Source of the DNA: a virus | Strand: one strand, 5' to 3' | Virus record (IMG/VR): IMGVR_UViG_3300017698_000036 | Coordinates: 74,657-138,656 of that record | Length of the DNA stretch: 64,000 bases | Shown: one piece after another, positions 9,938 to 55,674 of the stretch | How the letters are laid out: each line of letters begins with the position of its first letter | Numbering within the stretch: the first letter of the stretch is position 1 | Made by a program: the position numbers and the translations under genes | The notes under the pieces: model-generated | Seen by the model: the letters and a program-made list of their open reading frames with translations, nothing else | The model's database searches: none | Told to the model about the DNA's origin: nothing

Positions 9938-10177
9938 ATGTCTAAATTCAATCATAAATCCGTAACCGATAGAGACTTCGAACCCAGAAAAGGTGAAGAG
10001 TTTGACCCTATGAATGCGATCGATCTTGCGATGGAATCTTATGACGACCAGAGAGAGAGTGAAAACGCCTGTAGTGCCAAGAATCTCAACAGACATGCGA
10101 AAAAACTTCGTAACGTATTCACTGATGAGTATGGTATGATTTGTGATCCAACAGACGGAAAGTGGGTAGAATGTTAG
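9938..10177 (+). CDS. Small hypothetical protein
   Basis: 79 aa ORF; AAGG upstream; overlaps start of next gene. Confidence 0.55.
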   Translation: MSKFNHKSVTDRDFEPRKGEEFDPMNAIDLAMESYDDQRESENACSAKNLNRHAKKLRNVFTDEYGMICDPTDGKWVEC

Positions 10178-10584
10178 TAACAGCCAAACATATATTCGAT
10201 GAACCCAAGATCTATCCATGGGATGTATTGGATTGGGCCGAGGAAGGACAGGTCGAATATGAAGTTGACTTGTATCTCAGAAATACCGATATAACCCACC
10301 TACCTGATAACATGACGGTCAATGGTTATTTAAATCTCTACAGTACCAATATAACTCAACTACCTAAAGATCTACATGTTGGTGGCAACTTGTATCTCAA
10401 TGATACCAACATAACTCAACTACCTAAAGATCTACATGTTGGATATCATTTAGTTCTCTACGGTACCAATATGGCTCAATTACCTGAAGGTCTGTATGTT
10501 GGTGGTAATTTACATCTTGGGCACGATGACAATATTAAGATTCCTGATTCTGTGGTCATAAAAGGTACAATTTGGCGTACTTGA
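10171..10584 (+). CDS. LRR-like repeat protein, family copy 1
   Basis: MLVTAKHIFDEPKIYPWDVLDW N-terminus plus 20-aa repeats L-x-L-x2-TNIT-x-LP-x2-L-x-VGG; 60 bp near-perfect internal DNA repeat at about 10344-10443. Confidence 0.85.
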   Translation: MLVTAKHIFDEPKIYPWDVLDWAEEGQVEYEVDLYLRNTDITHLPDNMTVNGYLNLYSTNITQLPKDLHVGGNLYLNDTNITQLPKDLHVGYHLVLYGTNMAQLPEGLYVGGNLHLGHDDNIKIPDSVVIKGTIWRT

Positions 10585-10606
10585 AAAAATTAATTTAAAA
10601 TAATCC

Positions 10607-10635
10607 TTGACAATAAGAAAAATATATGGTATAAC
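10607..10635 (+). promoter_or_regulatory. sigma70-type early promoter
   Basis: TTGACA-17-TATAAC, preceded by aatcc. Confidence 0.85.
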
Positions 10636-10695
10636 TATAATAGAGGTAAAAACAGATTGTCTAACAATAAAGATAAAAAGGGAGAGCAAGAGGGG

Positions 10696-10827
10696 TTGAG
10701 TAATGTAAAATTCATTATTATAACGATTGTTTTCGTTATATTAGTGTTTTTATTGAATTATATTAATAAATTTAGTAACGAGGAATATGTGGTTAAACAT
10801 GTTATTCCAGAAAGTGTAGGTAGATAA
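10696..10827 (+). CDS. Small single-pass membrane ORF (43 aa, not in ORF track)
   Basis: GAGGGG then TTG; LSNVKFIIITIVFVILVFLLNYINKF...VGR-stop. Confidence 0.35.
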   Translation: MSNVKFIIITIVFVILVFLLNYINKFSNEEYVVKHVIPESVGR

Positions 10828-10846
10828 ACACATAAGGAGAAAAAAT

Positions 10847-11593
10847 ATGAAGATTGATATGGCTAAAATGAAGGCAGCTTTCAACAGACTTAATGGTAAA
10901 GGCGGATCTGGTGTTTGGTATAAGGCAACCGATGGAGATCAAATTAGAATCTTACCAACCGATGATGGAGTACCCCTCAAAGAGTATTTCTTTCACTACA
11001 ATGTTGGTGATAAGGGGTTTCTGTGTCCCAAGAGAAATTATCATCAGGACTGTCCTGTGTGCGATTTCGTAAGTGAGTTATTCAATTCCGGTGAAGAGGA
11101 CGAGAAGGAATTTGCAAAAAATATCATGGCCAAGCCCAGATATCACAGTATCGTCGCCGTTAGAGGTAAGGAGGGTGACGGTCCCAAGATCTGGGCCTAC
11201 TCTCCAACAGTATTCAAGTCCATCTTTGGTCTTATGTTGGATGAAGAGGATTTCGGGGATATAACAGCCGTAGAGTCCGGTAACGATCTTAAGGTTTCTG
11301 TTGGTAAACAAAAAGGTCAGAAATATGCAATGGCCACAGTAAGTCCTAAGCCTACTAAAACCCCATTATCTAAATCAACCAGTGGAAGCCTGAAGGATGA
11401 CGTAATTGATGTCCTTCTACGGGAGCAACCAGTCGTTCTAGACTATTTAGATAAACTTACTTCTGAAGAGGTAGGACTTAGACTCAAACAGTTGGTAGGT
11501 AAGGAAAAAGAGACTCAGGTTGAGGTTAATACCGCCAAATCTGGATCCATTGATGAGAAGAAGAAAGAGATCGACGAGTTTCTAAATCAATAG
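10847..11593 (+). CDS. T4 gp32-like single-stranded DNA-binding protein
   Basis: QIRILP, FHY-x-VG, CP-x7-CPVC, RY-x-S-x-V-x-VRG, PKIW, DFGDIT-x4-GNDL; AAGGAG RBS. Confidence 0.8.
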   Translation: MKIDMAKMKAAFNRLNGKGGSGVWYKATDGDQIRILPTDDGVPLKEYFFHYNVGDKGFLCPKRNYHQDCPVCDFVSELFNSGEEDEKEFAKNIMAKPRYHSIVAVRGKEGDGPKIWAYSPTVFKSIFGLMLDEEDFGDITAVESGNDLKVSVGKQKGQKYAMATVSPKPTKTPLSKSTSGSLKDDVIDVLLREQPVVLDYLDKLTSEEVGLRLKQLVGKEKETQVEVNTAKSGSIDEKKKEIDEFLNQ

Positions 11594-11671
11594 TAGGATA
11601 ATCGTTTCTTATATATTAACTTAGCTTAACATTTTTTTATTTCAATATACAATTAGGAGAAAAGAGGGACG

Positions 11672-12841
11672 ATGGCTAGAAAGACTAAAACTAGTAGTAA
11701 GAATACGTCCGGTATGAGTTTTAGAGAGAAGTACGCAAAGAAACATGGTGCCCTCTCTACGTCTGAAAACAGTGCGGTTGATATGTGGATTCCAACTGGT
11801 TCAAGATGGTTGGATTCCATTATTAACGCAGGATCAATGGCCGGCATTCCCACAGGTAAGATTACCGAGCTGGCAGGGGAGGAGTCAACCGGTAAGTCGT
11901 ATTTGGGTATGCAGATTGCAAAAAACGCTTTAGATATGGGCCTGATGGTAGTATATCTGGACTCTGAGTCTACATATGATGACACTTTCATGGAAAAGGT
12001 TGGGATAGACCCAGAGAATGAAAGGTTTATTCACGCACCAGCCGGAACAGTAGAGAACGTGTTTGAGGTTATAGACGATATGACTAAGGAGGCTATCGAG
12101 GCCGAGACCAGGGTTGTTGTTATATGGGACTCAGTGGCCAATACACCTTCAAAGGTAGAGATGGCAGGAGACTTCAACCCCAACTCATCCGTGGCCGTAA
12201 CCCCTAGAATTATTTCATTGGGGTTCAAAAAACTAACTCAGACGATGGGACAGACTAAGACCACGTTGATTTGTTTGAATCAACTTAAAACTAAAATTCA
12301 TACCGGACCCAATGCACATATTGCGGCAATGTTGGATCCATGGAGTGCCCCAGGGGGGAAAGGTATACCTTATAACGCTTCGATGAGAATATGGCTAACC
12401 AAGAGAAAGTCCAAATCTTCATTTGTTTATGACGACAATGGATACAGGATTGGATCCGAGGTTAAATGTACTATCAAGAAGTCACGGTTTGGTAGTGAGG
12501 GACGTGTTTGTACGTTTAAGATCCTTTGGGGAGGGGATGAGGTCCGTGTTGCCGATGAAGAGAGTTGGTTTGAGGCTCTTAAGACATCTGATAGTCTTTC
12601 GGTTGGTGCATGGTGTAATCTTCTCGACACTGACGGTAATGTCATTGGAGGTCAGTTTAGATCGAAAGATTGGTTAAAGAAGCTTGAGGATCCTGCGTTT
12701 AGAGCACGCGTGGAAGAGTTGATGGACGAGGAGGTTATATACAAATTCCACTCTAGGAAAGGTAAGGCTAGTGATTATTATACATTGGAAGATGATCGGG
12801 AGGGGGAACATCCTATTGAACCGACCATAGAAGAGGATTAA
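11672..12841 (+). CDS. recA: RecA/UvsX-like recombinase
   Basis: IPTGS-x2-LD, GIPTGKITELAGEESTGKS (Walker A), VVIWDSVA (Walker B), LICLNQL, PGGKGIPYNASMRI. Confidence 0.92.
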   Translation: MARKTKTSSKNTSGMSFREKYAKKHGALSTSENSAVDMWIPTGSRWLDSIINAGSMAGIPTGKITELAGEESTGKSYLGMQIAKNALDMGLMVVYLDSESTYDDTFMEKVGIDPENERFIHAPAGTVENVFEVIDDMTKEAIEAETRVVVIWDSVANTPSKVEMAGDFNPNSSVAVTPRIISLGFKKLTQTMGQTKTTLICLNQLKTKIHTGPNAHIAAMLDPWSAPGGKGIPYNASMRIWLTKRKSKSSFVYDDNGYRIGSEVKCTIKKSRFGSEGRVCTFKILWGGDEVRVADEESWFEALKTSDSLSVGAWCNLLDTDGNVIGGQFRSKDWLKKLEDPAFRARVEELMDEEVIYKFHSRKGKASDYYTLEDDREGEHPIEPTIEED

Positions 12842-19305: not shown

Positions 19306-19493
19306 TGGGGTTTATCAAATATTTACTAAAATCCATTTGGCGATGGTTTAAGCAGTTGGGTTTCATTATTATAATATTTCCGTTCTTTCCAATATTGTGG
19401 GTTTATCTAATGCTGGCCGACAAGAAGGAGGAGTATGACAACCATATTGCAAACGAGAAATTACACAAAAAAGATAAGTCTGGAGATTTGTGA
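19305..19493 (+). CDS. Small membrane protein
   Basis: LGFIIIIFPFFPILWVYLML hydrophobic segment; TAATG overlap with upstream gene. Confidence 0.5.
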   Translation: MGFIKYLLKSIWRWFKQLGFIIIIFPFFPILWVYLMLADKKEEYDNHIANEKLHKKDKSGDL

Positions 19494-19849
19494 TGATTAT
19501 CAGGTTGCGTGAGTATGACAAGAAGGGCTTTAGAATGTTTACCATTTTTGATACGGAGGGTATGGACTTGTATGTCTTCTTGGTTCAATTAAAGGCTCAC
19601 TTAACGTCCAATTTGGTTACTTGGAGCGATTCAGAAGATAAGTGTCGTGTGTCAAAGATAGATTTTGATTATTTTGATCAAATAGCCGAAGAGTATGGTA
19701 TGCGTGTTGATGAGCTAATTTGTGAGATAGAGGATATGGACTTTTGTGTATCTATCGACAACGTCGCACAGTTTGTTGTGATAGGTTGTTCAAGACCAAC
19801 GTACAATGATGGTAAGCGCTCGCTATTTTCAGAGGTGTATCATGAATAG
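19490..19849 (+). CDS. DG-SLFS family protein 1
   Basis: Ends NDGKRSLFSEVYHE; FDYFDQIAEEYGMRVDELICEI resembles a segment of the 20191 protein. Confidence 0.7.
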   Translation: MMIIRLREYDKKGFRMFTIFDTEGMDLYVFLVQLKAHLTSNLVTWSDSEDKCRVSKIDFDYFDQIAEEYGMRVDELICEIEDMDFCVSIDNVAQFVVIGCSRPTYNDGKRSLFSEVYHE

Positions 19850-20189
19850 TTGGAGAGATAGATGTTTTATGTTGTATTACGAAGAAGAGCTCGGCCGAAT
19901 GAACGCAGTAGTAAACATGACCAATTACAATGACTGGCCATTAACTGAGGATAAGTTAATTAGGGATTGTCGATGGGCTTGGGATATGTTACAGTATTAT
20001 AACGGGCCCGGTGTAAGATACCGTTCAGAGGCTCTAGATTATTTTAATTTAGAATTCAACTTCAACCTTTCAATTGAAGACCTGTTGGGTGATTCGTATT
20101 TTATAAAAGAACAAGATTCAGAGTTTTTGATTTATAAGATTGAACCCAGTAATGACGGTAAACACTCACTATTTTCAGAGGTGTATTGA
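19842..20189 (+). CDS. DG-SLFS family protein 2
   Basis: Start follows GAGGTG inside the previous gene's tail; ends NDGKHSLFSEVY. Confidence 0.7.
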   Translation: MNSWRDRCFMLYYEEELGRMNAVVNMTNYNDWPLTEDKLIRDCRWAWDMLQYYNGPGVRYRSEALDYFNLEFNFNLSIEDLLGDSYFIKEQDSEFLIYKIEPSNDGKHSLFSEVY

Positions 20190-20190
20190 G

Positions 20191-20562
20191 ATGAACTTAG
20201 ATAGGTATGGTATAGTGTTTAAAAGATACCAAGAGGAAACGCTCGAATGGACCTACTTCATATGTTCTAAGAGGGGTAGAGGTAGACGAAGATACTCTAA
20301 GCAAGGAGAGTGTTTGTGTGTTCTGAGAGAGATGATAAGAAATATTTGTAAACGAAATGTATTGGAGGAGTTATACATTCCCTTTGACTGTTTTGATGCA
20401 ATATGGGAAGAGTTTAATGAATATGAATTAAACGTTTCTGAGTTAATATGTGATGATATAGACATCAAACGTGACTGTTATGACGGTACTGGAATAACGT
20501 TTACGTATGGTGGATTCTTTATCCCCGATGATGGTAAACATTCACTATTCTCTAAGTTTTAA
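20191..20562 (+). CDS. DG-SLFS family protein 3
   Basis: Start follows GAGGTG inside the previous gene's tail; ends DDGKHSLFSKF. Confidence 0.7.
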   Translation: MNLDRYGIVFKRYQEETLEWTYFICSKRGRGRRRYSKQGECLCVLREMIRNICKRNVLEELYIPFDCFDAIWEEFNEYELNVSELICDDIDIKRDCYDGTGITFTYGGFFIPDDGKHSLFSKF

Positions 20563-21605: not shown

Positions 21606-21634
21606 TTGACAACTGAATAAAAATGGGGTATAAC
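21606..21634 (+). promoter_or_regulatory. sigma70-type early promoter (identical to 51805 copy)
   Basis: TTGACA-17-TATAAC in ttaatccttgacaactgaataaaaatggggtataactaagtaag. Confidence 0.9.
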
Positions 21635-21658: not shown

Positions 21659-22015
21659 ATGATTGTAACAACCGAACATATATTCGATGAAGTTAAGATT
21701 TACCCGTGGGATATATTGGATTGGGTTGAGGAGGGTCAAACTGAGTACGGTAATGATTTAAATCTCAGATATACCGATATAACACACTTACCCGACAATA
21801 TGAAAGTTGATGGTTATTTAGATCTCAGAGGTACCAACATAGCTCAATTACCCGACAATCTGCGAGTCGAGTATGGATTAAACCTTGGAGATACAAATAT
21901 AACTGACTTACCCGATGACCTGTATGTTGGTGGTAGTTTAACTCTCAGTAATACCAATATGGCTGACTTACCGGTACAGGATAGTGTGTTTGTTGGAATG
22001 GAGATATTCAGATGA
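21659..22015 (+). CDS. LRR-like repeat protein, family copy 2
   Basis: MIVTTEHIFDEVKIYPWDILDWVEEGQ plus TNI-x2-LPD-x-L-x-V repeats; ends with ATGA overlap. Confidence 0.85.
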   Translation: MIVTTEHIFDEVKIYPWDILDWVEEGQTEYGNDLNLRYTDITHLPDNMKVDGYLDLRGTNIAQLPDNLRVEYGLNLGDTNITDLPDDLYVGGSLTLSNTNMADLPVQDSVFVGMEIFR

Positions 22016-22377
22016 TTGTAACAACCGAACATATATTTGACGAGTGTGTACCTAGAGTTTACCCGTGGGATGTATTTGAAAACATTTATGAAGGTCAGAC
22101 TAGGTATTGTAACGATATAGATTTTTATGATACCGGTATAACCCATTTACCAGATAATATGATCTATGAGGGTCATTTAGATTTAGAAGATAATACTGAC
22201 ATAATTGAACTGCCTGATAACATGACGGTCGATGGCTATTTGGACATTAGAAGAACCAAAATATCTAAACTGCCTAATCACTTAAAGGTTCGTTGTTGGT
22301 TAAATACTGAAGATACCGGTATATGTAGTATTCCGGATACTGTAGAGGTGGGAGGGGTGACATATCTTGATAATTAA
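22012..22377 (+). CDS. LRR-like repeat protein, family copy 3
   Basis: MIVTTEHIFDECVPRVYPWDVF plus repeats. Confidence 0.85.
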   Translation: MIVTTEHIFDECVPRVYPWDVFENIYEGQTRYCNDIDFYDTGITHLPDNMIYEGHLDLEDNTDIIELPDNMTVDGYLDIRRTKISKLPNHLKVRCWLNTEDTGICSIPDTVEVGGVTYLDN

Positions 22378-22686: not shown

Positions 22687-23061
22687 ATGGGTCGTAAGAG
22701 AAAAAACTTTAAATACAAACTCCTATTAACTCACGATATAGAGTCGGAGTGTTCGTACATAAAGACAGTTACGTCTAAATATTTTACTAAGTATGAAGTG
22801 GGCGGAGTTGAGTATCTTGTCAGTAAGAGATTTTATGGTTTAAAGGGGGAATATGACGACGAGAAGACCGTCGGATATAGTACTCTGACTGGAGACTCCG
22901 TTTATGTGTTTGTCGATGAATGGTACATGTACCTGGAGACCTATAACGACGATATGCATAAGATACTATCTGGACCTTGCAAAACATTCAACGATAAGGT
23001 AAAGAGGTTTATTCCGGTGGCCTTAAATAGAGCTGCGTTACTAAGGAAGTTTATAAAATGA
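22687..23061 (+). CDS. Hypothetical protein
   Basis: 124 aa; AGGAG RBS; ATGA overlap with next gene. Confidence 0.6.
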   Translation: MGRKRKNFKYKLLLTHDIESECSYIKTVTSKYFTKYEVGGVEYLVSKRFYGLKGEYDDEKTVGYSTLTGDSVYVFVDEWYMYLETYNDDMHKILSGPCKTFNDKVKRFIPVALNRAALLRKFIK

Positions 23062-23444
23062 AAACTGAAGCTCGTAAAACTACGGCCAATTACCTGGGTA
23101 AGTACGACATTAGAATATCCGGATATGCGATGGATATGTTTGATATACCTTATTCAGATTCGTCCAATTTTTACAAACTAAACCCATCAGATAGATTAGA
23201 GGTACTGTGTAAGGCGATCACCTATATATTGAGAGCCGGTAGCGAATATCGAGGTACACCAAGTTACTTAAAGGTAACATACTACGATTGTTATGACTGG
23301 CTTAATATGACTATAGCCAAGGTGTTAGCCAATATAGGTCCTAGTACTGATCTGTTGTGTGAGGACAATTACAATTTGGGTTATTTAAGATTCAGGCTTA
23401 AACCCGCAGATGATGGAAGGTTTTCTTTATTTTCTAAAAACTGA
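23058..23444 (+). CDS. DG-SLFS family protein 4
   Basis: Ends PADDGRFSLFSKN; YDCYDWL...DLLCED resembles family core. Confidence 0.7.
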   Translation: MKTEARKTTANYLGKYDIRISGYAMDMFDIPYSDSSNFYKLNPSDRLEVLCKAITYILRAGSEYRGTPSYLKVTYYDCYDWLNMTIAKVLANIGPSTDLLCEDNYNLGYLRFRLKPADDGRFSLFSKN

Positions 23445-23461
23445 TTTTAGAGGAGGATATA

Positions 23462-23935
23462 TTGAGATTTATAAATTATGTTAAAAATAATAGTAAGTTG
23501 GAGTGGTTGGTCGATGACGTAGACAATCCAACTAGGATCATGTTTTGTTATCTAGGATCATATTCTAATCGATCCGGTACAGAAAAATGTCAGAAGTTCG
23601 TGGATAAGTATGGAGATAATAGGATCAAAAAGAAATTTCCCGTGTTTGAGGTAGATTTCGTATTTGATCACACTTGGTTATGGGAGTCATCTGCAGGTTG
23701 GGTATGTAAGGATGTTGACACCGATGAAGAGTTTAGGGTGTCTATTGTAGACCAGGACGGTTTAATGGATAGGGTAGAACTCGTAAGAACAATAGAGGGA
23801 AACGGTGATGTCGACGACAAGAAAGTGTATCGTATGAAGGGTTTTTATCGTAAGAAGTCAAGTTATGTATACTTTATTCCGTTCGTTGGAAGTATAAATG
23901 AAGTATACAAACCAAAGGCACATCAATTATTTTAA
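23462..23935 (+). CDS. Hypothetical protein ending in HQLF-stop
   Basis: GGAGG RBS, TTG start; last codons caa tta ttt taa. Confidence 0.65.
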   Translation: MRFINYVKNNSKLEWLVDDVDNPTRIMFCYLGSYSNRSGTEKCQKFVDKYGDNRIKKKFPVFEVDFVFDHTWLWESSAGWVCKDVDTDEEFRVSIVDQDGLMDRVELVRTIEGNGDVDDKKVYRMKGFYRKKSSYVYFIPFVGSINEVYKPKAHQLF

Positions 23936-38419: not shown

Positions 38420-40006
38420 ATGTTATTAAAAAGTTATGATGATAGAAAGAAAGTACTTGACATTTTCAAAGGACTGTATGATCATGTGAGCTCTAGTTTA
38501 GGGCCTTTAGGGCATACTAGTTTTATTAGAAAAGAGAACGGTAATCATATAATCACTAAAGATGGTGTGACAATCTGTAAACACTATAAGGGAGATGATG
38601 ATTTCTCCAACTTATTGATCGATATCATAAAAGAAGTTTCCCAACGAACCGACTATGGTGTGGGTGATGGAACAACCAGTACCATCGTATTCGCCTATCA
38701 CCTATTCGAGGAACTTCTTAGACTGTCTAACAGTGGTTATAGGTATGTTGACCTGATTGAGGGTGTTGATGAGGCGGTGACCAGAGTGTTGACTGAATTG
38801 TCTAAGTACAGGAAAGATGTTACCACTACAGAAGAGTTGGGTAATATCGCTTTTGTATCTTCCAACAATGATAGAGAAGTGGCCGATATTATTCAAAAAG
38901 CCATTGAGGAGGTTGGTAACGACGGCACCATTATCACTACGAGAAACAGAAGATATAACAAAACCGTGTTAGATATCAGAGAAGGTTTCACGTTCGATGG
39001 AGGTTATATTAGTGAGATGTTTGTTACTAATCCGGATTCCAAGTCTACTGAATATCATGAGCCTCATGTAATTGTAACAGATTACGCCATACATACCGTC
39101 AAACAGATATGGCCACTATTACAGTTGTTAAGTGCAGATAGAAGACCTGCAGTACTCATCGCAGATACCATTGAAGAAGAGGCTTTGGGTTCTTTGATTA
39201 AAAATGCCACAGAGGGGGCTATTAGGGTGTGTGGTATCAATGCTCCATACTATGGAGATGAAAGAAAGGCCTTCTATGAGGATGTGTGTGATATTACTGG
39301 TGCAACATTCATATCCAAGCACAGTGGTAAAATGTTGGAAGATATCTCCCTTTCGGATTTTGGAAAGTGTGGTAAGCTTGACTCACGAAAAAAGATAACC
39401 ACTCTAATCAACGGCGCGGGTGATATGGCCAAGATTAGGTCTAAAGTACAGAGTTTAAAAGATGAAATGTTGAATATCGATATTACGGAAGAAGAGATGG
39501 AAGATCTTACCGATCGCGTTAATCGATTAGCGTCAGGTGTGGCAGAGATTCAAATAGGTGGTTATACCGAAGCTGAGATTAAAGAGAAGAAGTATCGGTT
39601 TGACGATGCTCTATCTGCGGTTCAAGCCAGTTACAAGTCCGGTACTGTAGTTGGTGGTGGTATTACATACATAAATATCTCGAAGGATTTAGAGGGACGT
39701 ATTGATCCCAACTACAGAGAGGGAGTTAAAATGGGTTATAAGGCCGTAATCAAGGCCCTCTACTCTCCATTTGATAGATTATTGGAGAGTTCTAATAGAC
39801 AGGGAGAAAGACCTCTTATCTTAGGAAAAATAGAGAGACATCATACAGAATTTGGTAATGAGTATGGATACAATATTCGTACCGATGAATACTGTAATCT
39901 AAGAGACAGCGGTATTATTGAACCCTCCTTAATTCTGAAAAATGTAGTACGAAATTCTTCCAGTATTGTGAAATTACTGTTAAATAGTACATCCATTATT
40001 TTATAA
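38420..40006 (+). CDS. groEL: GroEL-like chaperonin
   Basis: SSSLGPLG, ITKDGVTI, GDGTTS, EGFTFDGGYIS, RLASGVA-x-I-x-IGG, GTVVGGG; no GGM tail, no GroES in the window. Confidence 0.92.
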   Translation: MLLKSYDDRKKVLDIFKGLYDHVSSSLGPLGHTSFIRKENGNHIITKDGVTICKHYKGDDDFSNLLIDIIKEVSQRTDYGVGDGTTSTIVFAYHLFEELLRLSNSGYRYVDLIEGVDEAVTRVLTELSKYRKDVTTTEELGNIAFVSSNNDREVADIIQKAIEEVGNDGTIITTRNRRYNKTVLDIREGFTFDGGYISEMFVTNPDSKSTEYHEPHVIVTDYAIHTVKQIWPLLQLLSADRRPAVLIADTIEEEALGSLIKNATEGAIRVCGINAPYYGDERKAFYEDVCDITGATFISKHSGKMLEDISLSDFGKCGKLDSRKKITTLINGAGDMAKIRSKVQSLKDEMLNIDITEEEMEDLTDRVNRLASGVAEIQIGGYTEAEIKEKKYRFDDALSAVQASYKSGTVVGGGITYINISKDLEGRIDPNYREGVKMGYKAVIKALYSPFDRLLESSNRQGERPLILGKIERHHTEFGNEYGYNIRTDEYCNLRDSGIIEPSLILKNVVRNSSSIVKLLLNSTSIIL

Positions 40007-43606: not shown

Positions 43607-43634
43607 TTGACATATCGATATGATGGGGTATAAT
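43607..43634 (+). promoter_or_regulatory. sigma70-type early promoter
   Basis: TTGACA-16-TATAAT, A-rich UP-like tract upstream. Confidence 0.85.
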
Positions 43635-43683: not shown

Positions 43684-44223
43684 ATGAAGATGAACAAGCT
43701 TGACGGTTTAAGGGTATCACTCATGGATGTATGTGAAAATCTTTATGGTACCATGGTTTTTGATCACGGCATTATTATATACGAAGGTTCCCTGTCCTTA
43801 CGCAATTCCGACATAACACATCTTCCAGACAACTTTTATGTAAACGGAGGCCTGAACATAGGTGGGTCTAAGATGACACAGTTACCAGGAAATTTAACTG
43901 TCCACGATCATTTCAATTTGTCCCACACCAATATTACAGAACTCCCAGATGATTTAAAGGTTGGTAAGTGGTTGAATGTTCGTGGTTCTAAGGTGACTAA
44001 AATTCCGGACAATATGACTGTAAATGGTACCTTTATTGCGGCCGCCACACCGTTAGAGCTCTTACCAGGTGGTCTACATGTACGTGAGGGTTTGGATTTG
44101 TCAAACACCAATATTACAAAATTACCCGATGATCTAATTGTGGATGGTTGGTTAGATATTAGAAACACCAATATAACCAACATTCCTGAAACCGTGAAGA
44201 TTGGTGGAGAGATATTTAGATGA
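43684..44223 (+). CDS. LRR-like repeat protein, family copy 4 (different N-terminus)
   Basis: Seven or so L-x-L-x2-TNIT-x-LP repeats; ends VKIGGEIFR with ATGA overlap. Confidence 0.8.
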   Translation: MKMNKLDGLRVSLMDVCENLYGTMVFDHGIIIYEGSLSLRNSDITHLPDNFYVNGGLNIGGSKMTQLPGNLTVHDHFNLSHTNITELPDDLKVGKWLNVRGSKVTKIPDNMTVNGTFIAAATPLELLPGGLHVREGLDLSNTNITKLPDDLIVDGWLDIRNTNITNIPETVKIGGEIFR

Positions 44224-44630
44224 TCACAACAACCAGGCATATATTCGACGAACCCAAAGTCTATCCGTGGGACATACTTGAATGGGTTAAGGAGGGACAG
44301 AGATGCTATGATGGACCAGTTGATCTGTCTCTTGAACATGTAACCCACCTTCCGTATGGTATGGAGGTAAATGGTGCGTTGGATTTAGAGAACTCACATT
44401 TAACCGTTCTCCCTAGCGGTTTACGTGTTGAAGATTGGTTAGATCTCAGTGGTACCAACATAACTCATTTACCTGATGATCTATATGTTGGTGGTAGTTT
44501 GTATCTCGGTGGTACAAATATAACTCATTTACCCGACAATCTAGAGGTTGGAGGTAGTTTAGATATAAGAAACACCAACATTGTTGACATTCCAGATACT
44601 GTAAAGGTGCTCAGGAGGATAATAAGATGA
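44220..44630 (+). CDS. LRR-like repeat protein, family copy 5
   Basis: MITTTRHIFDEPKVYPWDILEWVKEGQ plus repeats. Confidence 0.85.
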   Translation: MITTTRHIFDEPKVYPWDILEWVKEGQRCYDGPVDLSLEHVTHLPYGMEVNGALDLENSHLTVLPSGLRVEDWLDLSGTNITHLPDDLYVGGSLYLGGTNITHLPDNLEVGGSLDIRNTNIVDIPDTVKVLRRIIR

Positions 44631-45275: not shown

Positions 45276-45304
45276 TTGACAAACGGGTCAATATCGGGTA
45301 TAAT
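45276..45304 (+). promoter_or_regulatory. sigma70-type early promoter
   Basis: TTGACA-17-TATAAT; the ORF-track start at 45276 is this promoter, not a real start. Confidence 0.85.
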
Positions 45305-45326: not shown

Positions 45327-45683
45327 ATGTTAGTAACAACCGAACATATATTTGACGAGTGTATACCTAGAATTTATCCATGGGATGTATTGGATTGGGT
45401 CGAGGAGCGCCAAACTAGGTACCATCGTAGTTTATTTCTCAGAGATACTAACATAACTCATTTACCTGACAATATGACAGTTAATGGTTGTTTAAATCTC
45501 AGAGATACTAACATAACTCATTTACCTAATAATCTAAAAGTTATTGGTGATTTATATCTAGACAGAACCAACATAACTAAATTACCCAACGATCTATATG
45601 TTGGTGGTAATTTAGATTTATATGGTATCAATATAACCAACATGCCTGAGAGTGTACGTGTTGGTGGAGAGATAATAAGATGA
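45327..45683 (+). CDS. LRR-like repeat protein, family copy 6
   Basis: MLVTTEHIFDECIPRIYPWDVLDWVEE; ends VRVGGEIIR with ATGA. Confidence 0.85.
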   Translation: MLVTTEHIFDECIPRIYPWDVLDWVEERQTRYHRSLFLRDTNITHLPDNMTVNGCLNLRDTNITHLPNNLKVIGDLYLDRTNITKLPNDLYVGGNLDLYGINITNMPESVRVGGEIIR

Positions 45684-46186
45684 ATTTATATGAGGCATTA
45701 GAAAAAGACTATCCTGGAAGATTTTACGAAGATCAAAAAGAGTTTGGTTGTAGTTTATATCCTCATAATAAAACAAACTTATTACCTGTTTCCATGACGG
45801 TGTTGGGTGACCTTAATTTAGAAAACACAAGGGTGGATAAACTGCCAGAGTTTCTGATTGTGAGTGGTACTTTGGATATTAGAGGTACCAAGATAAGAAC
45901 CTTGTCCAATGTGATAAAGGTTGGTAGAGGTCTACAGGCTTCTCACTCTAAATTGACGTCTTTACCAGACAACCTCCACGTTGCTTACTTAGACATTAGT
46001 AGCACCGACGTAGAGGAGTTACCTGTGGGGTTAGTAGTAGATGGTTATGTTGACGTAACAAATACACGTATCACAAGTATTCCGAATGATAGTTTGATCG
46101 GAGGTAGAATTTATTCAAAAAAACCTCTTGACAAACCAAAAAAAATAGACTATAACTATAGTATGATTGGTTACAAAGTAATTTAA
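45680..46186 (+). CDS. LRR-like repeat protein, family copy 7 (divergent, different N-terminus)
   Basis: LP-x2-L-x-V-x-G-x-L-x-L/I-x2-T repeats. Confidence 0.75.
   Translation: MNLYEALEKDYPGRFYEDQKEFGCSLYPHNKTNLLPVSMTVLGDLNLENTRVDKLPEFLIVSGTLDIRGTKIRTLSNVIKVGRGLQASHSKLTSLPDNLHVAYLDISSTDVEELPVGLVVDGYVDVTNTRITSIPNDSLIGGRIYSKKPLDKPKKIDYNYSMIGYKVI
46128..46156 (+). promoter_or_regulatory. sigma70-type promoter embedded in the 3' end of the upstream CDS
   Basis: TTGACA-17-TATAAC. Confidence 0.8.
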
Positions 46187-48666: not shown

Positions 48667-49092
48667 ATGGATATAAAGAGTAGAAAATTAAATAACAAAA
48701 ATAGGAATTATTTTAAGGTATATTTCATAGTAAATAAAAGATACAACCTGGTATGGCATGTTCGTCATGTAGAACGTTATGTGTCTGGATTTCGCAAGGG
48801 TCAAATTAAACTGAGAAAAGACATGATAAGTCTCACTAGAAACCAAGCTCAGGGGAAATTAAACCGTCTCTATTGGCGTAGTGATGATGAGCAGACATAT
48901 GAAGTAGGAATCAATCAAAAAGAGTTAGAGACTTACTACGGAGGTAAAACAGATTGTGATATAAAACTCAACCCTGATTCAATAAACAGTTACAAGGTCA
49001 CAGTATACCTTTCAGATTTAGAGATAGTAGAGCACTCTGTCGACGTTACACAGTTGATTGAAAAAGATTCTGAAATGTTTTCCTTATTTTAA
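48667..49092 (+). CDS. Hypothetical protein ending in FSLF-stop
   Basis: Last codons tcc tta ttt taa. Confidence 0.6.
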   Translation: MDIKSRKLNNKNRNYFKVYFIVNKRYNLVWHVRHVERYVSGFRKGQIKLRKDMISLTRNQAQGKLNRLYWRSDDEQTYEVGINQKELETYYGGKTDCDIKLNPDSINSYKVTVYLSDLEIVEHSVDVTQLIEKDSEMFSLF

Positions 49093-49097
49093 AACTC

Positions 49098-49126
49098 TTG
49101 ACAAGAGATTCAGTTTGAGGTATAAC
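49098..49126 (+). promoter_or_regulatory. sigma70-type early promoter
   Basis: TTGACA-17-TATAAC. Confidence 0.85.
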
Positions 49127-49150: not shown

Positions 49151-49441
49151 ATGTTAGTACCAACCAAGCATATATTCGATGAGTGTAGAGTTTATCCATG
49201 GGATGTATTGGAATGGATTGAAGAAGGTCAAACTGACTATATCGGTAGTTTAACTCTCAGAAATACCAATATAACCCATTTACCCAATAACATGACGGTC
49301 GATGGTTGGTTAGATCTCAGGGGTACCAACATGGTTCAACTGCCCGATTATCTATATGTTGGTGGCGGTTTGTTTCTCGGTGGTACAAATATAATTAACA
49401 TACCAGAAAGTGTATTTGTTGGTGGAGAGATATTCAGATGA
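49151..49441 (+). CDS. LRR-like repeat protein, family copy 8
   Basis: MLVPTKHIFDECRVYPWDVLEWIEEGQ; ends VFVGGEIFR with ATGA. Confidence 0.85.
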   Translation: MLVPTKHIFDECRVYPWDVLEWIEEGQTDYIGSLTLRNTNITHLPNNMTVDGWLDLRGTNMVQLPDYLYVGGGLFLGGTNIINIPESVFVGGEIFR

Positions 49442-50262: not shown

Positions 50263-50463
50263 ATGGAAGGAACATATGATGGAAAAGTAACCTATCGTGA
50301 CAAGGATGATATTTCTCTCTTTCTTCGGCATTGGGAGGGAGTTGATACGGTAAGTTGGACGGCCGACGGCAAGGTTAGAATTGTGGTAGATTCATCAATG
50401 ACTTCTACCGATAAGGCCCTGTGGCAAAAACGTCAATATTTTGCAAATAATCAGTTGTTTTAG
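50263..50463 (+). CDS. Small protein ending in NQLF-stop
   Basis: AGGAG RBS; last codons cag ttg ttt tag. Confidence 0.6.
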   Translation: MEGTYDGKVTYRDKDDISLFLRHWEGVDTVSWTADGKVRIVVDSSMTSTDKALWQKRQYFANNQLF

Positions 50464-50572: not shown

Positions 50573-50734
50573 ATGTCCAAGACTTACAGAAAACAAATTG
50601 GTAACAAGAAAATCAAAAGACAAGATAATAAAAAAGGTAGAAGACATAATGTGAAACAGAAACTTCACGATCTTGTCAACAGTGGAGAATGTACCAACTG
50701 TGATTTTGAAATTCCAGAAACTTGGGAAGGGTAA
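50573..50734 (+). CDS. 53-aa basic protein (not in ORF track)
   Basis: MSKTYRKQIGNKKIKRQDNKKGRRHNVKQKL...WEG-stop. Confidence 0.5.
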   Translation: MSKTYRKQIGNKKIKRQDNKKGRRHNVKQKLHDLVNSGECTNCDFEIPETWEG

Positions 50735-50739
50735 CTAAA

Positions 50740-51003
50740 ATGACCAAAGTTAAAACAGGACCTAATATTTTCTCTCAAATGGAATATGGTTTGGACTCTC
50801 CATCTGCTTTAAAAAGAAAGATTGACACATTGGCAGGTACCTTGGTCGAGAAAATGAACGAGGAGTTGGATACTGATAAGTTCAAAGATATGAACTCCGA
50901 CATGTTGCGACTTGTTAAAGAGGAGTTGGAGAAGGATATCAAAAAGGCTATTGATAGTGCTTTTAGTGAGTACATGAAAACTAAAAGTCATTCATTGTTT
51001 TAA
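50740..51003 (+). CDS. Small protein ending in HSLF-stop
   Basis: Last codons tca ttg ttt taa. Confidence 0.6.
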   Translation: MTKVKTGPNIFSQMEYGLDSPSALKRKIDTLAGTLVEKMNEELDTDKFKDMNSDMLRLVKEELEKDIKKAIDSAFSEYMKTKSHSLF

Positions 51004-51218: not shown

Positions 51219-51482
51219 TTGTTGGTCCCGCCTGTCTTTATTACAAATCTTAAAAATATCAAAAATGTGGATGTTTGGAAACGTGAACTCGTAGAACAGT
51301 TCAAGTATTTGTTAATGACTGAAGATGGTACCATACTCGTTACTGAATTGTTGAAAGAGTTGAGTTTAACGGGTGTGGATGTGGAAGAGATAGTTGAAAT
51401 GATGTACAGTAAGGTTAACGATGGTAGGTACTCTCTGTTCTCCGAAGAGTATGTTGTAGAACTAGGAGAGGAAAGGTTTTAG
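51219..51482 (+). CDS. DG-SLFS motif protein 6
   Basis: NDGRYSLFSEEY followed by 9 more residues; TTG start uncertain. Confidence 0.5.
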   Translation: MLVPPVFITNLKNIKNVDVWKRELVEQFKYLLMTEDGTILVTELLKELSLTGVDVEEIVEMMYSKVNDGRYSLFSEEYVVELGEERF

Positions 51483-51804: not shown

Positions 51805-51833
51805 TTGACAACTGAATAAAAATGGGGTATAAC
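51805..51833 (+). promoter_or_regulatory. sigma70-type early promoter (identical to 21606 copy)
   Basis: TTGACA-17-TATAAC. Confidence 0.9.
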
Positions 51834-51857: not shown

Positions 51858-52154
51858 ATGTTAGTAACGACCAAACATATATTCGATGATTGTATACCTA
51901 GAGTCTATCCGTGGGACGTATTTGATTGGATTGAAGAGGGTCAAACTGAGTTCTATGGTAACTTAAGTTTTCACGAAAGTAGTATAACCCACCTACCCAA
52001 CAATATGAAGGTTGAAGGTTGGTTAGATCTCACTAATACCAATATAACTAAATTACCCGACAATCTGTACGTTGGCGGTAATTTATATATCGAAAGAACC
52101 AACATAACTAATTTACCCAACGATCTAAGACTTGTTGGGGGGGTAATAAGATGA
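51858..52154 (+). CDS. LRR-like repeat protein, family copy 9
   Basis: MLVTTKHIFDDCIPRVYPWDVFDWIEEGQ; ATGA overlap. Confidence 0.85.
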   Translation: MLVTTKHIFDDCIPRVYPWDVFDWIEEGQTEFYGNLSFHESSITHLPNNMKVEGWLDLTNTNITKLPDNLYVGGNLYIERTNITNLPNDLRLVGGVIR

Positions 52155-52492
52155 AAAAGATTGAAATCAAGGTAGGTCCATATCGTTACGGGCCCTTTGA
52201 GGTTTATTATAATAACATATCTAAATCATGCCGAGTCATTCCGATCGTTGCTAATAGTGCTCCGGCTGCAGACAGTGTCAGTTGTTTTTGTGATATGTTA
52301 CATAATGAATATTCTAAAACAAATCCTCTGGTGGCCACCCAGTCATGGGCCGCGGCATGGTGTGAGTTGGAAATGATAGAAATTCGCGATGATATACATG
52401 TAGGTTACCATCCAGAGCGGGAAGAGTATACATTTTACCCATTAGACCCAAAGAATGATGGAAGATTTTCTCTATTTTCAGAGTTTTATTAA
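52151..52492 (+). CDS. DG-SLFS family protein 7
   Basis: Ends PKNDGRFSLFSEFY. Confidence 0.65.
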   Translation: MKKIEIKVGPYRYGPFEVYYNNISKSCRVIPIVANSAPAADSVSCFCDMLHNEYSKTNPLVATQSWAAAWCELEMIEIRDDIHVGYHPEREEYTFYPLDPKNDGRFSLFSEFY

Positions 52493-52528: not shown

Positions 52529-52587
52529 AATATTAAGTAAGTTGATAAAAGATACAATATCCATTAACGAAAGAATTGGAGCTTATA

Positions 52588-54015
52588 ATGACAGAAAAGA
52601 ACGAAGAAACAAAAGATCTTACTGAACAAGAAGCCAAGGATATGATAGAAGATGCTATCAAGGAACAGATCAAGGCTATGAAGGAAAAGGAGAAAAAATA
52701 TCCTCCCGTAGATTGGGATACTGTCTTTTCTACTACCTTCACAGATGATGAGCACCTCTTTGATTATATTCTAGGACAGTTTAGAGTTGTTAAGTCGACC
52801 CAAGTACCCATTGCCGGTGTTACATACAGTCCTAGTTTGGAGAAGTTTGTATTACTTTATAACGATGTTAACATGAGAGAGATTCTCAAAGAAACTGGTA
52901 AGAGTAAGATTCGTGGCATTATTAAACATGAGATCTATCATGTCATGTTGGGTCATCTGTCTGATCGTAGACCAAAGAATACTAAGTTTGCCAAGATTTG
53001 GAACTACGCCACTGACTTGGCCATTAATACCAATATCCCATCAGATCAACTACCTGAGTTTTGTCTATTACCGGGAAAGGAACCATTTCAGGAATTCAAA
53101 TCCAACCAAACGGCCGAATACTATTTTCGTAAGATTATTGATGTCTACGGTGATATGTCCGAGGAAGAGTTGGAACAGATGCAATGTGGTGAAGGAGACG
53201 GGTTAATGCCTGGTAATCTCAAAGAGGCCACAATGGGCCATGATCAGTGGGAAAAGATGAACGGTGAGGGTAGTAATTTAACAGATGAAGAAAAGGCCTT
53301 CATGAGACAGCAGGCCGCACAGGCAGGTAAGGAACTGGTTGAGGCGGGACTTATTGAAGAGATGGATTCAGAGAAACGTCACAGTAGTAGATATGGTGGT
53401 AAGGTGCCTGGCAACATTCCCTATAATACATATAAGGAAATCTTGGAAGGTAACGATATCACTAAGTTCGGTATCAAAGAGTTGATCAATAAACTCTCTA
53501 CCAGTGCCATCGTCTCCAGGAAAAGAAAGTGTTCACGTAAGATTTACAATAAAAGAATGCCTTGTTTTTCCGGTGTGAGAAGAAGAGATAGAGTACCTCA
53601 TATCGTTATTGCCGTTGACCAGTCTGGTAGTGTAGATGATGACATGGTACATATGTTCTTCGAGGTATCAGCCAGGCTCAATAAGTACTTCAAAATTACC
53701 ATTCTACCTTTTGACACGAGGGTTAATGAGAACCATATTGTGACATTTGAAAAAGGTAAATTTAAAGGTAAACACGAAAGGACATGTTCCGGTGGTACTG
53801 AGTTTGATGCAGTGATTGAGTATACGAATAAGAAATATCCTAGAGGTAATGTTGATTTGATTATCGTAACAGACCTCGGTGATAGTTATCCTGATACTAG
53901 GTCTAAAAATCCAATTCACTGGGTTGCAAGTGATAGAGATATTGAAAATTCATATGATGAAAAGTTTTTAGATCATAGACTTGCAGACCTGTATGAAGTG
54001 TCTGGTACCGATTAG
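52588..54015 (+). CDS. Metallopeptidase-like (HExxH) plus VWA-like domain protein (MoxR partner)
   Basis: IIKHEIYHVMLGH, WNYATDLAIN, IAVDQSGSV (MIDAS), GGTEF, IIVTD. Confidence 0.85.
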   Translation: MTEKNEETKDLTEQEAKDMIEDAIKEQIKAMKEKEKKYPPVDWDTVFSTTFTDDEHLFDYILGQFRVVKSTQVPIAGVTYSPSLEKFVLLYNDVNMREILKETGKSKIRGIIKHEIYHVMLGHLSDRRPKNTKFAKIWNYATDLAINTNIPSDQLPEFCLLPGKEPFQEFKSNQTAEYYFRKIIDVYGDMSEEELEQMQCGEGDGLMPGNLKEATMGHDQWEKMNGEGSNLTDEEKAFMRQQAAQAGKELVEAGLIEEMDSEKRHSSRYGGKVPGNIPYNTYKEILEGNDITKFGIKELINKLSTSAIVSRKRKCSRKIYNKRMPCFSGVRRRDRVPHIVIAVDQSGSVDDDMVHMFFEVSARLNKYFKITILPFDTRVNENHIVTFEKGKFKGKHERTCSGGTEFDAVIEYTNKKYPRGNVDLIIVTDLGDSYPDTRSKNPIHWVASDRDIENSYDEKFLDHRLADLYEVSGTD

Positions 54016-54037
54016 TAAAAATAATTTAACTTTTCTC

Positions 54038-54066
54038 TTGACAAATGAATACTTTTTGAGTATAAC
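54038..54066 (+). promoter_or_regulatory. sigma70-type early promoter
   Basis: TTGACA-17-TATAAC. Confidence 0.85.
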
Positions 54067-54148
54067 TAAATAGTAAGACACAAAGACAATTTTTAATTAA
54101 CAACAATTTGAAACTTTTAACAATTTCAAAAGAATGGAGTTCAAAATA

Positions 54149-55255
54149 ATGAAAGTAACTTGTAACATTAAACAATTTTTAGAATTAGTACCCTACATCC
54201 TTAAGAATAAAACTTACGGTGGTAGACCTATTCCAGTTATGATTATTGGTAAACATGGTATTGGTAAGTCTGAAATCATTGCTCAGTTAGGTAAAGAGTT
54301 GGACATGCCAGTTGAGAATGTTAGAGCTGGTGAGTTAACAGAAGGTGACTTCTCCGGTATTCCCCAAGCTATCGAGGGAGAGTATGGCGGTCTTGTTACT
54401 ACATTTGCAGCCCCTGACATGATTCATCAGGCGTGTAATGTACCAACCATCTTCTTTTTAGATGAAATTAACCGTGGTACTCCTGAGGTTCAACAGGGTA
54501 TGTTCAAGTTGGCAGACTCTGGTAAGGTCGTAAATCATGAGTTCCACAAGGATACCATGTTGATCTCCGCCATGAACCCTTCCGGAGGAGACTATCAGGT
54601 ACATGAGATGGATCCTGCGGCCCTCGACAGATGGTATGTTATTAACCTTGTACCCACAGAAGAAGAGTGGTTGTCCTGGGCCCAGAAGAATAACATCAAT
54701 CCCATCGTTGTGAGTTACATCGAGGATCATCCTAAGTCACTTGACCCTCCCGACTCATTTGAAGTAGGTAAGACCTACCCTTCCAGACGTTCATGGACTA
54801 GAATGGGTAAGACCTTAACTGCCATGGAGGCCGGGATTGGAGCGGATGGTATCTCTCAATCAACACTACAACTTATCGCCTCTGGTTATGTGGGAGAGGC
54901 CCATGTGGTACCATTTGCCAAGTACTACAAGTCTCATGCCAAGGATAACGCATTCAAACGTTATCTCGAAAAGGGTAAGTTTGATGGTGACATCAAACTG
55001 GAAGATGCGATTGACGCACTTGAGATTCTTTCACAACGTAAGATCTTCAATAAGACCTTGGACAACAAAATGGCCAAGAATGTAATCAAATTCGCAACAC
55101 TCATCCCCAGAGAGTCACTTCAAACTCTCGCATGGGAACACATTCAGAGGGGTACTGTTCCCACAACTGAAAAATTGTTGGCCATGCCCGTTAATGATGG
55201 GTCTGGTATGACATTCGGTCAATTCATCCACAAAAATACTATCGATAACGACTAG
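54149..55255 (+). CDS. MoxR-like AAA+ ATPase
   Basis: GKHGIGKS (Walker A), FFLDEINRG (Walker B), SAMNP, MDPAALDRW, PSRRSW. Confidence 0.88.
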   Translation: MKVTCNIKQFLELVPYILKNKTYGGRPIPVMIIGKHGIGKSEIIAQLGKELDMPVENVRAGELTEGDFSGIPQAIEGEYGGLVTTFAAPDMIHQACNVPTIFFLDEINRGTPEVQQGMFKLADSGKVVNHEFHKDTMLISAMNPSGGDYQVHEMDPAALDRWYVINLVPTEEEWLSWAQKNNINPIVVSYIEDHPKSLDPPDSFEVGKTYPSRRSWTRMGKTLTAMEAGIGADGISQSTLQLIASGYVGEAHVVPFAKYYKSHAKDNAFKRYLEKGKFDGDIKLEDAIDALEILSQRKIFNKTLDNKMAKNVIKFATLIPRESLQTLAWEHIQRGTVPTTEKLLAMPVNDGSGMTFGQFIHKNTIDND

Positions 55256-55269
55256 GGGTTAGTTGGGAA

Positions 55270-55299
55270 GGTGGGAGCTTGTCTCCCACCATTTTTTTT
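55270..55299 (+). terminator. Intrinsic terminator
   Basis: GGTGGGAG-CTTGT-CTCCCACC followed by A and a T run. Confidence 0.88.
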
Positions 55300-55323
55300 G
55301 TCTATAAGAAGGATGATTTCGTC

Positions 55324-55674
55324 ATGTTAGTAACAACCAAACATATATTCGACGAACCCAAAATCTATCCATGGGACGTACTGTATTGGGTTGAAGAGGG
55401 TCAAACTGAGTACGATGAAGACCTGGATCTCGGTGACACCAACATAACTCACTTACCTGATAATATGACGGTCTATGGTTATTTAAATCTCTACAGTACC
55501 AATATAACTAAATTACCCGACAATCTACGAGTTGAGTATAGTTTGTTTCTTGGACATACCAATATAACTCAATTGTCCGACGATCTATATGTTGGTAGTA
55601 GTTTATTTCTCAGAGATACTAATATAGGCCAGGTTCCTGATACTGTAACCGTAAAAGGTACAGTCCATTGGTGA
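55324..55674 (+). CDS. LRR-like repeat protein, family copy 10
   Basis: MLVTTKHIFDEPKIYPWDVLYWVEEGQ; ends VTVKGTVHW, like copy 1 (VVIKGTIW). Confidence 0.85.
   Translation: MLVTTKHIFDEPKIYPWDVLYWVEEGQTEYDEDLDLGDTNITHLPDNMTVYGYLNLYSTNITKLPDNLRVEYSLFLGHTNITQLSDDLYVGSSLFLRDTNIGQVPDTVTVKGTVHW

Follow-up and report, generated by a model that had tools for sequence, protein, structure and literature searches.

Few protein-binding scaffolds in eukaryotic immunity and bacterial virulence are as adaptable as leucine-rich repeat (LRR) solenoids, and we know of no phage LRR protein with a known function. The only characterized relative of the proteins described here is FlrP, an LRR protein of the polar flagellar motor of Vibrio alginolyticus. 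FlrP is a 21.5-kDa periplasmic protein that binds the rod and the FliF loops, and the N-terminal head that precedes its repeats (Y20-Y34) inserts into a cleft of FlgC (bioRxiv 10.64898/2025.12.04.692373). We analyzed a 64-kb stretch of virus DNA, referred to below as the window, which is the final 64 kb of the 138.6-kb IMG/VR virus record IMGVR_UViG_3300017698_000036 and encodes ten small paralogous LRR proteins. With a little better than even confidence, we regard these proteins as an early, cytoplasmic repertoire of stand-alone LRR binders, in which one scaffold carries diverged surfaces that would bind different host or phage proteins.

An initial annotation of the window had listed ten copies of the family, and all ten are present at the positions it gave, as intact open reading frames (ORFs) on the plus strand encoding 96-179 residues. 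Eight of them begin, largely as it had described, with M(L/I)(V/T)(T/P)(T/A)xHIFD(E/D)-x2-4-YPWD(V/I)(L/F)xW(V/I/A)xEGQ (the HIFDE/YPWD module, or N-terminal module), which the 43684 and 45680 copies lack. When the 44220 copy was searched against the whole 138.6-kb record, the other nine copies were recovered with E values from 1e-5 to 3e-37; no LRR copy was found outside the window and none in the structural half, the first 74 kb of the record, which holds TerL, portal, prohead protease, major head protein, and large tail genes. Copies start either at an ATG with an AGGA-type ribosome-binding site or through an ATGA stop/start overlap with the preceding gene. The copies, and a hairpin beside the last of them, are as follows.

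10171 to 10584, plus strand: LRR copy of 137 residues, N-terminal module and four to five repeats; closes its unit, its start overlapping the stop of ORF 9938-10177
21659 to 22015, plus strand: LRR copy of 118 residues, N-terminal module and three to four repeats; first gene behind a promoter
22012 to 22377, plus strand: LRR copy of 121 residues, N-terminal module and three to four repeats; ATGA overlap with the 21659 copy
43684 to 44223, plus strand: LRR copy of 179 residues, seven repeats; a different N-terminus, without HIFDE/YPWD
44220 to 44630, plus strand: LRR copy of 136 residues, N-terminal module and five repeats; ATGA overlap with the 43684 copy; the copy used for folding
45327 to 45683, plus strand: LRR copy of 118 residues, N-terminal module and four repeats
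45680 to 46186, plus strand: LRR copy of 168 residues that starts differently (MNLYEALEKDYP) and has a basic extension at its C-terminus; ATGA overlap with the stop of the promoter-proximal 45327 copy
49151 to 49441, plus strand: LRR copy of 96 residues, N-terminal module and three repeats; the smallest form
51858 to 52154, plus strand: LRR copy of 98 residues, N-terminal module and three repeats
55324 to 55674, plus strand: LRR copy of 116 residues, N-terminal module and four repeats
55270 to 55290, plus strand: terminator-like hairpin and T-run directly upstream of the 55324 copy, with no consensus promoter between them

None of the copies carries an export signal. As had been claimed, no signal peptide was seen, and no copy has a stretch hydrophobic enough to resemble a signal peptide or a transmembrane segment: Kyte-Doolittle means reach at most 1.07 over 12 residues and 1.05 over 19. 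The N-termini are acidic or polar. Nine of the ten proteins are acidic (isoelectric point [pI] 4.0-5.4; net charge of -5 to -16 in 96-137 residues), and the charge of the 45680 copy is near neutral.

The assignment of the family as an LRR solenoid was borne out by structure prediction. AlphaFold2, run on the 44220 copy with a 13-sequence alignment, returned a confident model (predicted local distance difference test [pLDDT], 92.5; predicted template modeling score [pTM], 0.84) in which residues 16-19 (PWDI) form a single short helix and every repeat contributes two short strands, and its 50 best structural matches were all LRR proteins. In a VIA-align scan of 48,161 PDB representatives, LRR proteins filled every one of the top 50 rows, with Z scores of 8.6-15.2. 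Foldseek gave the same LRR outcome with weaker statistics, and pentapeptide-repeat structures received Foldseek probabilities of just 0.33-0.41, below the LRR matches. The best structural match, well ahead of the rest, was chain 0 of PDB 8Z5U (Z 15.2; root-mean-square deviation, 2.5 Å over 118 residues; 28% identity), which is FlrP (BCB49735.1), and the family profile also matches this chain by sequence (E 2e-38). The phage copies and FlrP have the same 20-residue repeat class, LxLxxTxIxxLPxxLxVxGx, and comparable sizes, and the strand ahead of the first repeat can be aligned, EGQTEY in the phage proteins corresponding to GHTDNY in FlrP.

Counting by a regular expression for the canonical 20-residue unit gave 37 repeats over the ten copies and three to seven per copy, rather than the two to seven first reported. 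Conserved positions are L1, L3, T6, I8, L11, P12, V17, and G19, and the LRR superfamily consensus LxxLxLxx(N/T/S/C)xL is matched by L1, L3, T6, and I8, which correspond to consensus L4, L6, N9, and L11. Entropy is highest at position 20 (W/Y/H/N/S/G), followed by positions 16, 4, 5, 10, 18, and 2, and Asp is the most frequent residue at positions 2 and 13. The repeat is closest, in Matsushima's terms, to the 20-residue "bacterial" LP class, with Thr at the Asn position. Pfam LRR_1 scored 22.4 and 21.9 bits (cut-off 20.6) with the 43684 and 44220 copies, the rest being below threshold or unmatched. PHROGs gave weak matches only (phrog_21719 and phrog_31364, function not annotated), as did NCBIfam (SlrP/XopAC; the SlrP model reached 15-21 bits vs. 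a cut-off of 1113).

Synonymous divergence (dS) between the eight module-bearing copies is ~1.1-1.3, near saturation, and the duplications are therefore old. Nonsynonymous divergence (dN) in these eight copies is 0.20 in the N-terminal module vs. 0.41 in the first two repeats, and dN/dS is 0.15-0.3 overall. When the repeats were split by position, dN was 0.15 at core positions and 0.80 at exposed positions, with dS of ~1.0 (dN/dS 0.15 vs. ~0.8); strong purifying selection acts on the scaffold, and the surface is evolving almost freely. With intact ORFs and constraint of this kind, the copies are not the neutral duplicates that had been considered as a way in which the proposal could fail.

We searched for promoters with the exact pattern TTGACA-N16-18-TATAAY, the sigma-70 consensus. 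The window contains 12 sites vs. 0.18 expected, all on the plus strand.

10607, plus strand: exact sigma-70 site
18636, plus strand: exact sigma-70 site
21606 to 21634, plus strand: promoter, TTGACA-N17-TATAAC, ending 25 nucleotides (nt) before the ATG of the 21659 copy
40999, plus strand: exact sigma-70 site
43607 to 43634, plus strand: promoter, TTGACA-N16-TATAAT, ending 50 nt before the 43684 copy
45276 to 45304, plus strand: promoter, TTGACA-N17-TATAAT, ending 23 nt before the 45327 copy
46128 to 46156, plus strand: promoter within the 3' end of the 45680 copy
49098 to 49126, plus strand: consensus sigma-70 promoter, ending 25 nt before the 49151 copy
51805 to 51833, plus strand: promoter whose 29 bases are identical to the 21606 promoter, ending 25 nt before the 51858 copy
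54038, plus strand: exact sigma-70 site
61917, plus strand: exact sigma-70 site
63900, plus strand: exact sigma-70 site

A slightly looser pattern gave 16 plus-strand sites genome-wide, only two of them in the 74-kb structural half. Five of the 12 promoters end 23-50 nt before the ATG of a copy (21659, 43684, 45327, 49151, and 51858), an association with a hypergeometric p of 0.003 (10 family genes among 93 ORFs), and the 22012, 44220, and 45680 copies each overlap the stop of a promoter-proximal copy by ATGA. Because of these five promoters and three overlaps, eight of the ten copies are predicted to take first or second place in a transcription unit of the host polymerase, and the position of the five promoters indicates that the copies are probably early genes. 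Many of the promoters are preceded by an A/T-rich stretch and have a -10 region of the TGGGGTATAAC type, and the identity between the 21606 and 51805 promoter regions, complete over 29 nt, is still ~95% over 60 nt. The 12 promoters probably delimit the early transcription units of this phage, and they argue against a Bacteroidota host. The 18636 promoter is nearly identical to the 21606 and 51805 sites but lies ahead of an unrelated gene.

The mechanism that we propose begins with host RNA polymerase, which would probably transcribe the copies at the onset of infection from the strong sigma-70 promoters. The proteins would be built in three layers: a fixed hydrophobic core, to which every 20-residue turn contributes L1, L3, T6, I8, L11, P12, V17, and G19; an equally fixed cap at the N-terminus, consisting of the YPWD helix and the EGQTEY strand; and the exposed positions 20, 2, 4, 5, 16, 18, and 10 near the LxL and LxV strands, which are rich in W, Y, H, D, and N. 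Each copy would most likely act by stoichiometric binding, blocking, sequestering, or redirecting a different host or phage protein, and stoichiometric binding of different targets would thus make the family an early host-takeover or counter-defense repertoire. The position of the copies behind sigma-70 promoters fits such an early host-directed role. Early timing, protein binding as the activity, and a distinct target for each copy are what we infer. The initial annotation had suggested a repertoire of substrate receptors or anti-defense binders; what we retain of this is a cytoplasmic LRR family of a prokaryotic virus with a constant start and a variable surface, and what we do not find support for is the adaptor role.

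Several points weigh against a host-directed binder repertoire. The early timing is a reading of promoter sequence. No copy matched any of the PADLOC defense-system models, and searches of named families (Pfam, PHROGs, and NCBIfam) gave nothing beyond weak LRR matches, so counter-defense is one of several possible roles. Diversifying selection is not demonstrated, since dN/dS at exposed positions is ~0.8 and not >1 and dS is near saturation, the paralogs being too diverged to show it. We put the functional claim for the LRR copies forward as a hypothesis.

The N-terminal module bears on whether the copies might act as adaptors. Residues M1, H7, I8, F9, D10, Y15, P16, W17, D18, E25, and Q27 are invariant across the eight module-bearing copies. 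A 32-residue profile of the module, run against 1.84 billion representative proteins, matched only the window copies and two relatives, P0018 (144 residues) and P0019 (301 residues); a third outside protein with a HIFDE/YPWD start, P0014 (113 residues), came from a word-indexed search, and the module was not found in scans of IMG/VR and species genomes. As the profile matches are the window copies and a few close relatives, the module is restricted to this phage lineage. In the AlphaFold2 model of the 44220 copy, residues ~12-32 have pLDDT values >90, with the helix and first strand packed against repeat 1, and this YPWD helix plus EGQTEY strand looks like an LRR N-cap followed by a degenerate "repeat 0". 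In P0019, a metagenome protein, a 160-residue zinc-ribbon-like N-terminal domain with CxxC…CxxC spacing stands before an internal YPWD…EGQTEY cap, and high confidence in its model starts exactly at YPWD, as in the 44220 copy. Other lineages of the LRR class have their own helix and then a DGxxxYxGxLxL element. The confident cap fold, the internal copy in P0019, the alignment of EGQTEY with GHTDNY of FlrP, and the starts of the other lineages together indicate that most of the module fits the case of an N-cap for folding. The extreme N-terminus of P0019 (…IVINNHIV…) is faintly like MIVTTKHIF.

Residues 1-10 (MLVTTKHIFD) behave differently from the cap, being near-invariant in the eight copies (dN 0.13) and the sole low-confidence part of the model. 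Their dS is 0.58 vs. 1.0-1.7 elsewhere, and over codons 2-9 pairs with the same residue differ in codon in 13.6% of cases vs. 45-47% elsewhere, about threefold more rarely; short synonymous troughs of this kind are also present elsewhere. These features could reflect a docking peptide common to the copies, a constraint on translation start, or local gene conversion. RNA structure at the 5' end of the gene was also considered and rejected (consensus energy, -3.95 kcal/mol; covariation absent).

The initial annotation had the whole HIFDE/YPWD module docking on a common partner. For residues ~12-32, this gives way to a structural cap; residues 1-10, conserved and not confidently packed, stay as a candidate docking peptide. 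On that basis we see as doubtful, though the best placed of the alternatives, an adaptor or substrate-receptor function in which the first ten residues would dock on a shared protease, AAA+ machine, or ligase-like enzyme and the LRR surface would bring substrates. The near-invariance of an apparently unpacked peptide is what such a function would call for, and the N-terminal head of FlrP does insert into a partner cleft (bioRxiv 10.64898/2025.12.04.692373). A 153-kb phage with at least seven paralogs that share another constant N-terminus (see below) is a further point in its favor. However, no F-box or other adaptor family was found in a Pfam scan of the copies at E values up to 1, the module is missing in two of the ten copies, relatives in other phages have unrelated N-termini, and the lowered dS of residues 1-10 means that a nucleotide-level constraint or local gene conversion could partly explain their constancy. 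The AAA+/protease machinery named earlier as a possible partner comes down to adjacency, the sole link to any partner: the 51858 and 55324 copies flank a gene pair at 52576-55255 that encodes a DUF2201 von Willebrand factor A (VWA)-like putative metallopeptidase and a MoxR-type AAA_5 ATPase. More tentatively still, large phages may repeatedly evolve mini-LRR libraries in which a lineage-specific N-terminal peptide (here MLVTTKHIFDE) docks on a common machine and the repeats choose the host targets. If true, such shared-peptide LRR libraries would be the prokaryotic-virus counterpart of F-box/LRR or poxvirus ankyrin/PRANC receptor families.

Ocr, ArdA, and pentapeptide-repeat proteins are DNA imitators that block host nucleases, and acidic solenoids with Asp ladders (positions 2, 13, and 14) could in principle do the same. 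We consider a role of the copies as nucleic-acid mimics or anti-restriction proteins improbable. The strong negative charge and low pI of nine copies and the prevalence of Asp at positions 2 and 13 are in keeping with it, as is the location of copies first behind early promoters, where anti-restriction genes of other phages are often found. Yet acidity is common among small phage proteins, the 45680 copy is near neutral, and the fold is that of an LRR, pentapeptide-repeat structures scoring far lower and forming a quadrilateral beta-helix with a period of five residues rather than the 20 seen here.

A very low probability attaches to the idea that the copies are passengers, by-products of promoter-cassette duplication with little function of their own. 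Strong sigma-70 promoters mark the hyperplastic early regions of T4-type phages, in promoter-early stem-loop (PeSL) cassettes whose shuffling would be the model for such a process (PMC2839356). The window resembles those regions in having strong sigma-70-like promoters among small early genes that look non-essential, with promoter sequences repeated almost exactly, and similarity is higher in the promoter and leader regions, for example those of 21606 and 51805, than in the coding sequence. The stem-loop that defines PeSL is nevertheless missing upstream of all 12 promoters, which have an A/T-rich stretch instead: the 60 nt upstream of each promoter fold with -0.3 to -9.8 kcal/mol and contain no GC-rich hairpin plus T-run. 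Cassettes of the PeSL type were thereby ruled out, the only terminator-like hairpin (55270-55290) having no consensus promoter beside it. That all ten ORFs are intact despite saturated synonymous divergence, with a core dN/dS of 0.15, also speaks against passengers. We likewise give very little credence to a virion or host-recognition role, with the constant N-terminus attaching exchangeable LRR tips to the tail, for although receptor-binding proteins are usually built from a constant anchor and a variable binding domain, and the DUF7941 proteins of phage Goslar have a conserved N-terminal anchor and, in some tail members, LRR domains (PMC13742148), all ten copies lie in the replication/early half and none in the 74-kb structural block, they are just 96-179 residues long, the sigma-70 promoters ahead of them seldom occur in that block, and the neighbors of their relatives in other phages are replication and recombination genes.

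Relatives of the same LRR class are found in the non-structural modules of many phages. A pattern scan of IMG/VR gave at least 97 confirmed loci, and a scan of species genomes gave 41 loci in many phyla, mostly on contigs of metagenome-assembled genomes. In the ESM Atlas, the nearest clusters consist mostly of hypothetical viral proteins 120-160 residues long, and BFVD holds unnamed "leucine-rich repeat" phage proteins at 35-40% identity. Neighbors in ~60 other contigs include ParB, Sak4, resolvase, DNA methyltransferase, helicase, polymerase-exonuclease, anti-repressor, and RtcB, and there was no structural gene among the 25 commonest neighbor families of these contigs. In the temperate Edwardsiella phage Edno5, a homologue (Edno5_0047) lies between cI and exo/recT. 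Uncharacterized phage and prophage LRR proteins such as Edno5_0047 and UniProt A0A6J7X9U5 and A0A6J5LZF9 resemble the window copies in their repeats, which are 35-57% identical, and in their non-structural neighbors. They differ in that the HIFDE/YPWD start occurs in just three other proteins (P0014, P0018, and P0019) and in that many of them carry extra domains (an unnamed C-terminal domain, Thg1, or MutS domain I).

Family expansion also recurs elsewhere. The 153-kb phage IMGVR_UViG_3300037067_022020 (L059, L065, L069, L071, and L085) encodes at least seven paralogs, all starting with a constant sequence of their own (EEKILIPRRTPEERRKNFIKA.QQKIQQYIKNGS.GDLDL), and 222- and 312-kb contigs encode several copies with a third N-terminus and the unnamed C-terminal domain. 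The constant N-terminus of the 153-kb phage (…ILIPRRTPEERRKNFIKA.QQKIQQYIKNGS.GDLDL) is also present in the metagenome proteins P0005, P0006, and P0011. The unnamed C-terminal domain, of ~140 residues, follows the repeats in P0008, P0010, and P0013 and at L062:7431-8996, L064:7629-9098, and L073:7869-9068; its motifs include …ITGAC.QGT.NF… and …KYTI.EII.LT..EYG.E.F..FF, and it had no Pfam match. The LRR class was also seen fused to Thg1 (tRNA-His guanylyltransferase-like; E 2e-16) or to MutS domain I (E 1.6e-5), at L078:5813-7876 and L004:3424-5208, and these fusions suggest nucleic-acid-related cytoplasmic roles for some LRR members. On many IMG/VR contigs of 30-40 kb a relative is located at a contig end, and some have relatives at both ends of the same contig (L052/L080, L066/L083, and L049/L086). 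We set aside a genome-end position as their explanation, as a gene at both contig ends points to a probable assembly break in 60-nt DNA repeats; most likely, these locations are assembly breaks within the 60-nt repeats of circular or permuted genomes.

The virus record is ~70% complete by CheckV. All genes in the window are on the plus strand, the GC content is ~38%, and no tRNA genes were found in it. The window is the replication/accessory half of the record, encoding a DnaE-like polymerase, a DnaB-like helicase, a UvsX-like recombinase, ribonucleotide reductase, GroEL, the MoxR AAA_5 ATPase with its DUF2201 VWA/metallopeptidase partner, and numerous small ORFs; the genes for the DnaE-like Pol III alpha and the GroEL-type chaperonin are at 28335-31850 and 38420-40006. 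A DNA-level search of the INPHARED phage collection did not find a close relative of the virus. The best identity of its DnaE-like polymerase and TerL to other phages is only 28-40%: for the Pol III alpha it does not exceed 29% with any phage of the collection, and TerL is ~40% identical to that of Microcystis phage Mel-JY01 and Flavobacterium phage immuto. A gene for a 568-residue HNH/homing endonuclease directly follows the major head protein gene, outside the window (G000:C1:62081-63787).

Many otherwise dissimilar small proteins of the window end in …QLF-stop, …SLF-stop, or …DG(K/R)xSLFS(xx)-stop. Their genes are as follows.

8461 to 9045: QLF/SLF-ending gene
19490 to 20562: QLF/SLF-ending gene
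23058 to 23935: QLF/SLF-ending gene
48667 to 49092: QLF/SLF-ending gene
50263 to 50463: QLF/SLF-ending gene
50722 to 51003: QLF/SLF-ending gene
51219 to 51482: QLF/SLF-ending gene
52151 to 52492: QLF/SLF-ending gene, joined by an ATGA overlap to the 51858 LRR copy

We take this C-terminal motif to resemble the bacterial sliding-clamp-binding pentapeptide QL(S/D)LF, and a clamp-binding reading would fit a phage with a DnaE-like polymerase.

The LRR fold and the repeat class were already known, and there are many unannotated phage relatives. New here are the picture of a cytoplasmic family of ten members, under selection, close to promoters, and with a start specific to its lineage, and the connection to FlrP, whose structure is solved. 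Should the copies bind host proteins, the family would be an obvious place to look for small inhibitors of host takeover or defense pathways and possibly for a compact 96-residue binder scaffold, and FlrP offers a solved template for the design of tests.

Among known systems, F-box/LRR and poxvirus ankyrin/PRANC receptors are similar in outline, having a short constant terminal element, a variable solenoid, and, in the viral case, paralog expansion. They differ in that neither an F-box nor PRANC was detected in the phage copies, whose constant element is mostly a structural cap, and to our knowledge no SKP1-like partner exists in bacteria. The IpaH/SspH/SlrP/YopM type III effectors, of the 20-22-residue "bacterial" LRR class, share short LRR units with an LP motif and a similar solenoid (Z 10.0 for YopM, 9.3 for SspH1, and 9.2 for SlrP), and their LRR is the target-recognition part. 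The phage copies end at the last repeat with no NEL ligase domain, carry no secretion signal, and have Thr in place of Asn in the ladder. The phage model also shows an additional short strand, LxV, in every repeat, a feature that had been predicted for IRREKO-type LRRs (PMC2946307). FlrP differs from the phage copies in having a Sec signal peptide and a periplasmic location, where the copies lack a hydrophobic leader; in being positively charged, where nine of ten copies are acidic; in being encoded by a single-copy chromosomal gene rather than by a ten-member family behind sigma-70 promoters; and in having no counterpart of the HIFDE/YPWD start. The phage copies and FlrP are relatives, not orthologues, and FlrP is itself a stand-alone LRR protein that acts purely through protein binding, as we propose for the phage copies.

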